Assembly: GCF_013167455.1 (NCBI RefSeq)
Contig: NZ_CP038328.1
Source of the DNA: Escherichia coli O157:H7
Lineage (GTDB): Bacteria > Pseudomonadota > Gammaproteobacteria > Enterobacterales > Enterobacteriaceae
Strand: one strand, 5' to 3'
Length of the DNA stretch: 64,000 bases
Made by a program: the position numbers
Shown: positions 50,201 through 53,200 of the stretch, in pieces
Position numbering within the stretch: position 1 is the first letter of the stretch
Layout of the letters: each line of letters opens with the position of its first letter

Positions 50201-53200
50201 ATCTCTTCGTGGAATTTATTTTCTGAAAGCACCTCCTCTGAAAAAGCCCCCAACCCAACAGTCCTGGCTTCTTCGAGTAAAAGTGGAGAGTATTTTTGTG
50301 ATTCTGCTCGGGAACTCTCAACTTTCAAACGCTCCCCATTTAAATTGTGGAAAACATGGAGCAACTCATGAAAAACAATAGTCGCATGAAAGTCCACCAC
50401 GCTAATCCCCTCCCCACAGGGATATTCAACTGCATTCAGATTACAGTGAAAATCGGAACCAGTCCCCCGATGGTTCTCAGCATCTATATCTCTATGTGCC
50501 ATAACTCCTAGTCTGGAAGAGTTGAGGTGTATTACCACTGTTTCTGATTTAAGTCGGGATATTGATTCAATAGCATTCAGGAGTACACGCCCTGTCTCTG
50601 TAGAGCCAATCTTATCGAGTGCTGCTTCAATCTGCTGATATATATTATGATCAGTCCCCTGGAAACGAAGTTGCGGATTATTTTTTATCCATTGAACGCT
50701 CGATGCTTTTACAAGAGACTCGATATCTGTATCTGACATTGAGCTCGACCTTGATGACTGATGTAATACCAAGTTGAGGGACGTAGGGCGCATCAGGACT
50801 CCTGAGAATGCTACTTATTAGCAGCCTGTTTACCACTCTGTGAAAATGATTTTTTTAAAAGTGACCGTCAAGGCGGTCACCAAACCCGATAATAAAGCGG
50901 ATCATAGCCATTTGCCAGTCCTCAGCGACATTGCCCATTTCCGTGATCCGCCAAGAATTGCCAACCACACAATTTGTTACCAACTCCATCCATGCAACAA
51001 ATCCACTACACTGGATAAAATTACTAAATTTTACTTAATACCACACTAATAAGATCTTGCTTTCCGCCATGATAAGATTGCATTATTTGACTTTCACTCC
51101 ATGAACGGTCGGAAACATTATAAGATGATATATCTATTGGATTAAACTCATTCTTCGCGCGGTCATATAAGACATTTGTCTCTGTTGTATCGACAAAAAG
51201 AATTCCTTTTTGCTCCAGTCTATCAAACATATCGTAAATAGCATGCTCAGCCTGTGCTGGCAAGGACGAAATATTTAAAAGCGATTCTCCATTTATTTTA
51301 TCCATTCTAATACCAATAATATCACCATTATTGCCATATATTTTTTCTGCACTCCCGGCACCATAATATTGGTTGAAGCAACGAACTTCGCTTGTCACCT
51401 CTTCATTGCTTTGAGATGTAGTAAACATCTTCAGGACTTTTGTTGCATCCTCAGCATCTTCATATACTACAGCGTTCCCCCCTTTGCCAATAACATTACC
51501 AGGTACTGACAACCTGTTATAGTCCACACTCGGTAACTCTGGCGGTGCATAATCAACAGGAGGTAAATCAGGTCTGTTCGAATGAACAATGCCTCTTTCC
51601 ATAGCAGCGCTCACTGGTGATGCATTCAGCATGACCTCAATTTTCCTGCTAATCTCCCCCTTAGGCCATCCCAGCCTGTGCAACAGATTAGTAAAACAAC
51701 CACTATGACTTTCTCTTGTAACGCAAAACTTATTATCGGTGGCAACAACACGATATGTTCTGTTGCCAACCTTTACTTGCGCCCCATTATCAGAATGAAC
51801 GGCAGCATCCCTTACAGAGGATAAAACACGATTATCAGGCGAAGTCAGGTTTCTGGTTAAAGAATTCCATGAACATCCCAAATTTACAGAATATGGCGAT
51901 AACATACATTTCAACCTTCAAAATAAACCCATCTAAATTTCCTTAACAAACATCCCCCCTAACATGGCAACAAAAATTAGAAATGAACTCTTGCTTTTTG
52001 TATCTGGCAACTAATTCATCCTTCCAGCATCCCATCAAACGAACGTTTACGAACTATAACGCAGGTATTACCGGTCACTCGATATCTGGAGATACAGACG
52101 TATCAACATGATTGAGCGGCATACGATACTGCTTCCATGCCGCCAGTAACGATGTCTGCTCATCCGTCGCAATATCTAAATCTGCAGCATCCTGAAGTGG
52201 TGCGATATACTCACTGATTACAAGTACCAGACCGATAGATTAAAAAAAACACAATAACACGCTGCATTTAAAACAAAAAATTTTAAATATGATTTAATAC
52301 AAGCTTTAAGCCTTTAATTATCAGTTTTATTTATTTTCCAGCAATTGATTAATCAATTGTTTATATACAAATTATTCCTTTTCTTTCTCTCACGCAAAAT
52401 TCACAAAATATTGTTGCTGCAATGGACCTGTACAATAGTGAATCACGGTACTTTTCTGTGCACAACGTACTGCAGTTTCTTTACGATTTATAGCTGTACT
52501 GTTGAATTATGTACAATTTGAATCCATGCATGACGTGTGATGCCTATTGTGCATTTTTCCGAGCCTCTTTTTACTGGGCCGAAGCCGATGATGCTGATAG
52601 TCTCGTTCCGGCCATGTTCACTTACTACAGTAAAATTAGGGGAATTGCCTTTACATACAATGTTGCACGATTACCCATCATCAACTCCGTTAAAATGTAT
52701 GAATAGTAACCTTATGTCACTGCAAAGACGAATCATTGCTGATTGTGTTTGTCCACATCCCCAAATGTAAAAATATAAGGGGCGCCATGATACAGTTGGA
52801 TCTGATTTGCATCCTGTAAATTATCGTTGATAGCCAATCCAGGAAAATCATGTTGCTGGATAAATCCGTATCCTATGTTAGACACAGCGGAATACTCTGT
52901 GAAATCAGGACTCGCCTCATATCGGTCACTGATCGTACCCAGCCTTTCGAAGAAAGCCCTCTCATTCTCTTCATGCCTCATGGCAGCCTGTCGAAGGGCA
53001 TTCAGGTTACGTAGCCTAAGATGAGCTTCACGTTCTGGCTCTGCATATCCTTTGAAGTCGGGAACACTCCATCCCAGTTCTTGAGCGACACGACGTGCGA
53101 GAATCTCGGTGGGTCCTAACTCTATATTACTATCTCCAGATGGATCGCTAGATCCAGTAACATGATGAATAATCTCGTGAATCAGTCCTTCCTGCCACGA

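Follow-up and report, generated by a model that had tools for sequence, protein, structure and literature searches.

A relic of a lambda-family tail fiber assembly gene (tfa) that lies between the effector genes nleC and nleH of an Escherichia coli O157:H7 prophage is probably the leading edge of a second exchangeable effector locus (EEL) head that came to lie behind nleB2-nleC-ykgJ' when prophages recombined at their ends. The relic was studied within a stretch of 64,000 nucleotides of contig NZ_CP038328.1 (the window), where the prophage genes run J-lom-stfN-stfC-nleB2-nleC-...-nleH-nleD-ybhB/bioA (Table 1). It is noncoding, retains the 3' 30% of tfa, and has no job of its own. As judged from sequence comparisons, it marks where two cargo blocks of different ancestry meet, one 91% identical to phage Stx2_EH2201 and the other 92% identical to loci with espM2. 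An earlier, sequence-only reading had taken the relic as a record of stepwise cargo acquisition; the boundary survives our analysis, whereas the proposed insertion of nleB2-nleC between the prophage's own stf and tfa is not supported.

Table 1. Features of the effector region, in window coordinates
Feature	Position	Strand	Remarks
IS256-family transposase remnant (50855-50976), then nleD (50095-50793)	50095-50976	-	IS remnant inside the shared nleH block, which ends at 50827
nleH1-1 effector gene	51024-51905	-	Travels with the tfa remnant
Module between tfa remnant and nleH	51906-52053	-	About 25 bp, stfC-end relic (last ~15 nt), decayed terminator, motif
Tfa pseudogene, last 59 codons of a lambda-family tail fiber assembly gene	52054-52230	-	tblastn, Pfam, PHROG, PGAP
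Extremely AT-rich spacer	52231-52390	.	21.9% GC; 71% identity with indels to EC12/2B8
ykgJ-upstream-like DNA	52391-52508	+	52441-52508: homology with K-12 ykgJ/ecpE intergenic DNA
YkgJ-family pseudogene (ykgJ'), first 38 codons	52509-52622	+	Cys-cluster motif mutated, C terminus missing
nleC 3' flank	52623-52732	-	Colinear with the nleC-ykgJ' unit of Stx2a phage Stx2_EH2201
Proximal cargo block: nleC (52733-53752), nleB2 (53786-54766)	52733-54766	-	
First module copy, directly after stfC and upstream of nleB2	54767-54942	-	Terminator hairpin 54904-54928, motif 54876-54904

The remnant is a 5'-truncated tfa pseudogene

A tblastn search of the whole window with lambda Tfa (orf-194) gave a single match, in which positions 52230-52057 of the minus strand align with residues 136-193 at 67% identity (E 1.5e-20); nothing else in the 64 kb resembles tfa, so the window has no intact copy elsewhere. 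The Pfam family Caudo_TAP (PF02413) matched the same DNA over model positions 80-130 of 131 (E 1.3e-19), as did tail fiber assembly families of PHROG (E 1e-10 to 1e-14), and among 50,697 phage records the remnant matched lambda tfa at 72.5% identity (E 2e-16). An NCBIfam search returned no match for the tfa fragment, stfC, or ykgJ'. The resemblance of a start-less frame between nleC and nleH to the C terminus of Tfa, first noticed from the sequence alone, is thus firmly borne out by comparison with Tfa proteins.

The same reading held the gene to be truncated at both ends, which is correct for the 5' end only. Homology begins at about lambda codon 135, with the junction at about 52230/52231, a stop directly upstream, and no in-frame ATG, GTG, or TTG before residue 38 of the fragment. 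The open frame spans 52230-52078 (51 residues) and closes with a TGA at 52077-52075 that occupies a conserved tryptophan codon, TGG in both lambda and a sister remnant. Beyond this premature stop the match extends through P-V-I-P-A-L, up to the natural TAG (52056-52054) seven codons farther on. An ORF search of the minus strand of the remnant gave no ORF of at least 40 aa and no start codon. The likeness to lambda Tfa is therefore confined to its C-terminal 58 residues: the profile matches, but the N-terminal 70% (~130 residues) is absent, its place is taken by unrelated AT-rich DNA, and no cognate lambda/T4 gp37-like side tail fiber gene lies directly in front. The remnant is a pseudogene that makes no working chaperone. 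As such it is already known, since RefSeq/PGAP labels the same bases as a "tail fiber assembly protein; incomplete; missing N-terminus" pseudogene.

The fiber of this prophage consists of stfN (collagen-like) and stfC, and lies 2.7 kb from the remnant with nleB2-nleC in between. The N terminus of stfN is lambda-like (77% identical to orf-401). Lambda orf-314 found no tblastn match in the window, so the fiber lacks the C-terminal portion of lambda Stf on which Tfa acts. The earlier suggestion that loss of tfa may matter for the tail fiber is unsupported, given that phage Lambda_2B8, which carries the same fiber genes and two tfa remnants but no intact tfa, was plaque purified.

Two cargo blocks with a module at the head of each

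The nleC-ykgJ' unit is colinear, at 91% identity, with that of the single-effector Stx2a phage Stx2_EH2201, whose end is arranged stfC-nleC-ykgJ'-dinI-att without any tfa. The block running from 52429 to 50827 is instead colinear at 92% with loci of EC12 and Lambda_2B8 that have espM2, not nleC, upstream. Their 5' junction of the remnant (AT-rich DNA followed by ATCGGTCTGGTACTTG...) is identical to that of the window, and the truncation is therefore older than the adjacency to nleC. Comparison of related prophages had been proposed as a way of finding fewer effectors beside an intact tfa; an intact tfa, either of this sub-lineage or upstream of the motif described below, was found in none of the phages, E. 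coli genomes (at megablast level), or IMG/VR loci. No extant phage was seen in which the module follows an intact tfa, a point that does not favor stacking, and the donor arrangement would be a reconstruction. Four IMG/VR matches to a tfa-end pattern were due to chance, with no tfa present.

Identity to EC12/2B8 is 71% in the AT-rich DNA, 97.2% in the remnant, 96.0% in the module, 96.5% in nleH, and 83% past nleH. That the remnant is as well conserved between lineages as nleH could mean constraint and not recent co-transfer, and this too sits less easily with stacking. Elsewhere, the window-type upstream arrangement is followed by a different nleH allele and then nleF; exchange has therefore taken place downstream of the remnant.

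The motif TTGTTGCCATGTTAGGGGGGATGTTTGTTA, found upstream of nleH at 51944-51973, has only two copies in the 64 kb, one heading each block, and the regions upstream of nleB2 and nleH share a conserved 39-bp core (33/39 identical). In alignments, the module is preceded by either stfC or a tfa remnant, and the commonest arrangement places it directly after the last tail fiber gene of a lambdoid phage. Garcia-Angulo and colleagues reportedly described in 2012 a regulatory region (NRIR) with a 13-bp inverted repeat upstream of nleH1/nleB2. A review confirms that an NRIR-containing regulatory region of these genes exists (PMC7142665). In the window our motif likewise precedes these two genes only, and in other loci it is found in front of further effectors; as a lead we suggest that it may be the NRIR. 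A repeat search of 51900-52080 found no inverted repeat.

The same coupling is evident in IMG/VR. Most of the loci there come from E. coli prophages, and they are phylogenetically redundant (the 129 motif instances represent 92 distinct contexts), so that the following counts overstate independent events. The motif follows stfC in 109 of the 129 instances and a tfa remnant in 14, the remnants spanning lambda residues 136-193 or 153-186 only. Among 35 nleH loci, 27 tfa fragments were found, none of them intact and all 27 truncated at the 5' end with the C-terminal end kept; their lengths range from 26 to 86 codons, and the motif lies no more than 200 bp downstream in 26. In 19 of the 35 loci nleH comes straight after stfC; a tfa remnant precedes it in 15, always with another effector upstream.

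From these observations we infer an order of events in which the 5' end of tfa would have been cut against AT-rich DNA before the two blocks met. Head one would be stfC-module-nleB2-nleC-ykgJ'. Head two, comprising the tfa 3' end, a stfC-tail relic (~15 nt), a decayed late-operon terminator, the nle upstream motif, nleH, and the IS256 remnant, would then have been joined behind it when two different prophages recombined at their ends. The crossover was most likely homologous and within a ykgJ-like b-region segment that both prophages possessed. Remnants such as this one may persist because full deletion would tend to take the promoter region of the next effector with it. An extension of this proposal is that the tfa relic and the stfC-tail/terminator/motif module together form a portable boundary of effector cassettes, a homology "handle" for stacking EEL heads and swapping nleH alleles, with the remnant retained (97% identity versus 71% in the spacer) as part of the exchanged unit, or for nleH regulation or an IS009-like transcript. 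We regard this extension as unlikely.

The spacer and ykgJ'

Upstream of the remnant, about 500 bp had been described as ORF-poor, AT-rich DNA, a description that does not hold. The segment is 33.9% GC overall and contains the ykgJ-family pseudogene and about 120 bp of ykgJ-upstream-like DNA; extreme AT richness is restricted to the 160-bp spacer, the stretch of that length with the lowest GC content in the window. In a search of 5,426 E. coli genomes, the spacer was found only in EELs carrying this tfa remnant (339 genomes). Nor does it look like a diverged copy of ykgJ/ecpE intergenic DNA, with which it aligned locally no better than shuffled sequences did. The stacking model does not account for the spacer, a point against it.

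Next to the spacer, 52441-52622 (182 bp) is 81-85% identical to the 5' end and upstream DNA of K-12 ykgJ, and this homology stops abruptly at 52441. The adjoining 52391-52440 is a variant that recurs in the 2022H047 prophage; EC12/2B8 share it from about 52429. In 2022H047, the prophage end carries an intact ykgJ with the window's ykgJ-upstream variant, joined to a tfa remnant. Consistent with a crossover here, the parentage of informative sites flips within ykgJ' (about 52532-52616) from Stx2_EH2201-like to 2022H047-like, although the switch was placed with about 70 informative sites and just two comparators and includes a mixed zone. PPompW-type EELs have ykgJ codons 1-30 only and no upstream DNA, and so are no guide to where an att core would lie. 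We also considered ykgJ' as host chromosome captured at a former prophage-host junction and rejected this, since an intact ykgJ-family gene sits in a prophage EEL, nleC-ykgJ'-dinI is a standard phage end, and phage-like DNA flanks the K-12 ykgJ locus itself.

Arms of att sites are usually AT-rich, and the very AT-rich DNA that comes next to the ykgJ homology is att-arm-like. An alternative to stacking is that a second lambdoid phage integrated site-specifically into a ykgJ/ecpE-derived attB (attB-in-PP_2) of an nleC phage, after which an internal deletion from attL/int to mid-tfa left AT-rich (att-arm) DNA, the tfa remnant, and nleH. Secondary attB sites derived from ykgJ/ecpE are documented in EEL-proximal prophage ends, often on nleC-carrying phages, with a 96-bp att sequence for incoming phages (Nakamura et al. 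2021, PMC8112680), and the window's 182 bp of ykgJ-homologous DNA beside nleC resembles them. It differs, however, in that no K-12-like intergenic (att-core) sequence lies beyond 52441. In addition, the spacer matches no attL or attP in the 5,426 genomes, and the junction of the same ykgJ-upstream variant to a tfa remnant in 2022H047, with ykgJ intact, fits one contiguous inherited unit better. We consider integration of one prophage into another improbable.

An improbable alternative: in-place insertion at a resident tail fiber locus

According to the sequence-only reading, a resident stf-tfa pair was split by nleB2-nleC, nleH-nleD entered downstream, and these in-place insertions truncated tfa. 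The position of the remnant between the blocks, the lack of an intact tfa elsewhere in the window, and the lambda-like stfN N terminus all accord with this, as does an nleC'/tfa-remnant/nleH arrangement at another chromosomal site, which shows that the order nleC...remnant-nleH is old. That arrangement is widespread, and one 1.2-kb deletion could turn the window type into it. Nevertheless, destruction of a resident tfa in place is disfavored by the identical truncation junction behind espM2 in other EELs and by the direct contact of stfC, in this stfN-plus-stfC fiber type, with the motif module in 109 of 129 contexts, no tfa intervening. Nor does such insertion fit the direct succession of stfC and nleH in 19 of 35 loci, the nleC-ykgJ' unit that exists without tfa in Stx2_EH2201, or the missing lambda Stf C-terminal domain; and the remnant is accompanied by its own stfC-end relic, terminator, and motif, which is to say by a second EEL head. 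We rate the model as distinctly improbable.

Relation to exchangeable effector loci

Tobe and colleagues reportedly described EELs in lambdoid prophages in 2006; the term is in use in PMC8112680. The locus in the window is one of these: type III secretion system (T3SS) effector genes are clustered between the tail fiber genes and the prophage-chromosome junction, and the same cassettes recur in different combinations across related prophages. Like other EELs, it is a mosaic, with IS and gene remnants, and occupies the interval from the tail fiber genes to attR in a lambda-like prophage, and there is no categorical difference; the detail added here is that the tfa relics are always 5' truncated and coupled to the motif. 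We take the prophage to be Sakai Sp3/CP-933K from its position and effector set. Sp3 of Sakai is known to be immobile, showing no excision, replication, or packaging, for reasons unrelated to tfa. The remnant is an ordinary feature of a known kind and carries little weight alone, because the pseudogene was already annotated, EEL mosaicism is established, and the prophage is apparently the immobile Sp3. A tail fiber relic together with a second nle upstream module is, however, a usable marker of two effector loci stacked end to end.

Small-RNA and regulatory matches

The Rfam family IS009 (RF02111) matches 52094-52270 with E 1.6e-17, yet the score of 76.4 bits lies below the gathering threshold of 117. 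Since intact lambda tfa scores 217.7 bits, and a K-12 relic 202.3, the IS009 model is essentially tfa coding sequence. The family was built on the cryptic tfa relic between yagU and ykgJ in K-12, which likewise consists of some 150-200 bp from the 3' end of a 5'-truncated tfa, beside ykgJ-family sequence; the two differ in orientation relative to ykgJ (convergent in K-12, divergent in the window), in the effector-locus setting of the window remnant, and in its 76 bits against the cutoff of 117. Shuffling showed no excess of RNA structure in the remnant (z -1.6, equaled by 14 of 200 shuffles) or in the spacer. A sigma-70 scan of 51850-52800 gave two sites, 51883-51910 (+) and 52771-52742 (-), where shuffles lead one to expect 3.9; by this simple consensus scan, there is no promoter-like site within 51906-52732 (remnant, spacer, and module), and no terminator-like site was detected in 51850-52800.

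Retention of the remnant for a function, whether as a small RNA of the IS009 family or by extending the nleH promoter region with cis-regulatory DNA, is very improbable: the IS009 match, the 97% conservation beside a 71% spacer, and the near-constant coupling of tfa remnants to the motif speak for it, but the subthreshold score, the lack of excess structure and of promoter-like sites, the variable remnant length, and the equal frequency of nleH with no remnant upstream all speak against it. For annotation, it should be borne in mind with IS009 matches in prophages that this Rfam "sRNA" family amounts to tfa coding sequence.

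Two probably stacked effector-locus heads and the tfa remnant

The evidence from sequence comparison points to two stacked heads of exchangeable effector loci (EEL; a head being a tail-fibre end, a module, and the first effector gene), with the tfa relic between nleC and nleH supplied by the tail end of a second phage. The start-less, tfa-like fragment noticed there by the sequence-only reading was borne out by matches to lambda Tfa, Pfam Caudo_TAP, and PHROG tail-fibre-assembly families. Lambda Tfa had a single match in the window (residues 136-193 against 52230-52057; 67% identity, E 1.5e-20), a search of 50,697 phage records with the fragment returned lambda tfa (E 2e-16), and the Caudo_TAP match (E 1.3e-19) covered model positions 80-130 of 131 only. 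The frame is open at 52230-52078 (-), where neither a start codon nor an ORF was found on the remnant's strand, and then meets TGA. DNA alignment of the remnant with lambda and the two relics of phage Lambda_2B8 placed this TGA where a conserved Trp codon is expected, one that reads TGG in both lambda and 2B8 relic 1; homology runs on as P-V-I-P-A-L to the natural TAG (52056-52054) and then into shared downstream DNA. The 3' end is whole, and the description of the gene as truncated at both ends does not hold. The remnant is a real pseudogene, already on record through its PGAP label (tail fiber assembly protein, incomplete, missing N-terminus), and with a mosaic locus of a well-known kind there is little new here. 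The approximately 500 bp toward nleC, described earlier as ORF-poor and AT-rich, is extremely AT-rich only at 52231-52390 and is not featureless, containing the nleC flank, a truncated YkgJ-family pseudogene (ykgJ'), and ykgJ-upstream-like DNA.

Features of the prophage and of the region between stfC and nleH
Feature	Position	Strand	Remarks
bioDCFB, bioA, ybhB	end ~49.6 kb		chromosomal genes adjoining prophage
Lambdoid prophage next to bio/ybhB genes		-	J, lom, stfN, stfC, nleB2, nleC, nleH1-1, IS256 relic, nleD
J	57260-60673	-	
stfN	55220-56536	-	first gene of two-gene side fibre
stfC	54943-55212	-	second gene of two-gene side fibre; 89-aa product, annotated, phrog_576 full length
Motif copy upstream of nleB2	54876-54904	-	head of nleB2-nleC
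nleC 3' flank	52623-52732		
YkgJ-family gene (ykgJ')	52509-52622	+	first 38 codons, Cys cluster mutated
ykgJ-upstream-like DNA	52391-52508		
AT-rich spacer	52231-52390		21.9% GC, lowest 160-bp stretch of 64 kb
Motif copy upstream of nleH	51944-51973	-	

We take the prophage to be Sp3/CP-933K, given where it lies and which effectors it carries. In this E. coli O157:H7 window, a 206-base stretch around the remnant is 100% identical to EDL933 and 336 other complete genomes (O157:H7/O55:H7 lineage and a few others). Sakai Sp3 is without repressor and replication genes, has a disrupted integrase, and does not circularise, replicate, or package; the virion experiment proposed earlier is therefore impossible with Sp3. 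A mechanical ORF list gives a 133-aa ORF at 54943-55344 (-) overlapping the stfN end, where the supported product is that of stfC. Directly after stfC, PGAP marks a relic (hypothetical protein, missing N-terminus; 54834-54941, -) overlapping the terminator and motif upstream of nleB2.

The nleH cassette and its module

The DNA from 52429 to 50827 is one colinear block (~40 bp of a ykgJ-upstream variant, AT-rich spacer, remnant, module, nleH, IS256 relic). It matches a prophage of strain EC12 at the same att site, and also Lambda_2B8, a plaque-purified temperate phage, at 92% identity. In both comparators, the gene upstream of the block is espM2, not nleC, and the 5' truncation junction (...TTTTTTAATCT|ATCGGTCTGGTACTTGTAATCAGTGAG...) is identical to that in the window. 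Identity changes stepwise, from 71% with indels in the AT-rich spacer to 97.2% in the remnant, 96.0% in the module, 96.5% in nleH, and 83% after nleH. Given the shared junction behind espM2 and these sharp steps, tfa would have been cut before ending up behind nleC; remnant, module, and nleH appear to act as a single unit.

The module was found by aligning DNA 3' of the remnant with DNA 3' of stfC. Its parts are the final ~15 nt of stfC (or their relic past the tfa stop), a terminator hairpin, and a motif, TTGTTGYCATGT-N5-7-GATRTTTGTTA, which, written TTGTTGYCATGT-N5-7-GATGTTTGTTA, has exactly two copies in the 64-kb window. The two cores are identical at 33/39 positions (score 44; shuffled sequences averaged 18 and never exceeded 37). 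The hairpin is intact 3' of stfC (54904-54928) and decayed 3' of the remnant, and just past the natural tfa stop lies a short relic (52030-52053, -) resembling the stfC end (GGAAGGATGAATTAG vs GGCGGGATGAAGTAA). This stfC-end relic and decayed stfC terminator imply that, at some earlier point, the tfa end became joined to an EEL head of the stfC type. Garcia-Angulo et al. (2012) reportedly described a regulatory region, NRIR, for nleH1 and nleB2. The motif region is probably this element, whose existence a review (PMC7142665) bears out.

An IS256-family transposase relic (50855-50976, -) lies between nleH and nleD, inside the block common to EC12, 2B8, and the 2022H047 prophage. It is followed by EspS in those three and by nleD in the window, making the nleH/nleD junction another cassette boundary. 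The deposited Lambda_2B8 record (NC_049952; L003) leaves the second tfa relic (L003 9001-9153) without annotation and reduces nleH to a late-starting hypothetical protein of 609 bp (L003 9599-10207); the full 882-bp frame is colinear with the window.

The nleC block and the probable join

From 53739 to 52487 (nleC, its 110-bp flank, and ykgJ'), the window is colinear with the Stx2a phage Stx2_EH2201 (91%), whose entire EEL reads stfC-nleC-ykgJ'-dinI-att, without nleB2, tfa, or nleH. The proximal and nleH blocks differ in ancestry. Past ykgJ', Stx2_EH2201 goes on into K-12-like ykgJ/ecpE intergenic DNA, whereas the window changes to the variant of the 2022H047 prophage, where the same ~50 bp separate an intact ykgJ from a tfa relic. 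Distinguishing sites are EH2201-like toward nleC and mixed from ~52616 to 52532; over 52517-52392 nearly all are 2022H047-like. A homologous crossover within the ykgJ-like segment probably joined the blocks, a reading drawn from few sites and two comparators (Stx2_EH2201 and 2022H047).

In 2022H047 (L008 4759-5361), the intact 109-aa YkgJ-family gene forms the end of the EEL in a prophage at potB; the tfa relic after it is divergently oriented, has another truncation point, is ~24 bp shorter, and abuts ykgJ-upstream DNA directly. Chromosomal ykgJ of K-12 has phage-like DNA on either side (L009, MG1655 301000-307000: 2612-2811, 2854-3183, and 3220-3376), with a tfa relic downstream and, upstream, DNA sharing homology with part of the lambda b region (lambda 24170-24259) and with sequence that flanks dinI in many lambdoid and Stx phages. 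With these flanks the locus resembles the fossilised end of a prophage, and the transfer direction assumed for "ykgJ/ecpE-derived" attB may therefore merit a second look.

Distribution of relic-led nleH loci

Among 35 nleH loci of IMG/VR, nleH lay directly 3' of stfC in 19 and 3' of a tfa relic in 15. Each of these 15 has a further effector upstream: 2 show the window arrangement, 3 have espM in front, and in 10 nleC breaks off at codon 108 and is joined to tfa at codon 153. The last form can be derived from the window arrangement via one ~1.2 kb deletion (53422->52196); strains 95-3192 and Z1323PEC0010 carry it too, at the yodB site. All 27 tfa fragments in these loci were 5'-truncated with the C-terminal end present (none intact), and the motif followed within 200 bp in 26. 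A second, independent sample comprised 129 exact matches to the motif: 109 lay 3' of stfC and 14 lay 3' of a tfa relic, which covered lambda residues 136-193 or 153-186 and no others; in none did the motif follow an intact tfa. A pattern scan for the 3' end of the remnant's tfa sub-lineage likewise returned no intact copy. One IMG/VR locus (L140) combines a window-type upstream half with another nleH allele and then nleF, so exchange has also occurred downstream of the remnant.

Alternative histories

Secondary attB sites derived from ykgJ/ecpE have been described in prophages (Nakamura et al. 2021; PMC8112680), and site-specific prophage-in-prophage integration at one, with a subsequent deletion, would produce the same arrangement as stacked heads; an att core was not found after the 182 bp of K-12 homology in the window. 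The stepwise acquisition proposed earlier survives insofar as the remnant records separate arrival of two effector blocks, but the evidence does not point to cargo inserted around the prophage's own tfa and destroying it in place. The stfN/stfC fibre type adjoins the motif without tfa in the great majority of contexts (109/129), the window has no counterpart of the C-terminal part of lambda Stf, which Tfa serves, and Lambda_2B8 forms plaques with the fibre genes of the window, its tfa sequences being limited to two relics. A functional remnant, as an IS009-like sRNA or cis element, is a weak proposition: the Rfam IS009 match (52094-52270, -) reached 76 bits against a gathering score of 117, RNA structure was not in excess in the remnant, and nleH is equally often without any relic (19/35). 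IS009 (RF02111, listed as an sRNA gene) scored 217.7 bits on intact lambda tfa (L002, the lambda tfa region, 3417-3615) and 202.3 on the K-12 yagU-ykgJ intergenic relic (L009 2612-2811). The family essentially models the 3' portion of the tfa coding sequence, so IS009 matches in prophages represent tfa genes or their remnants.
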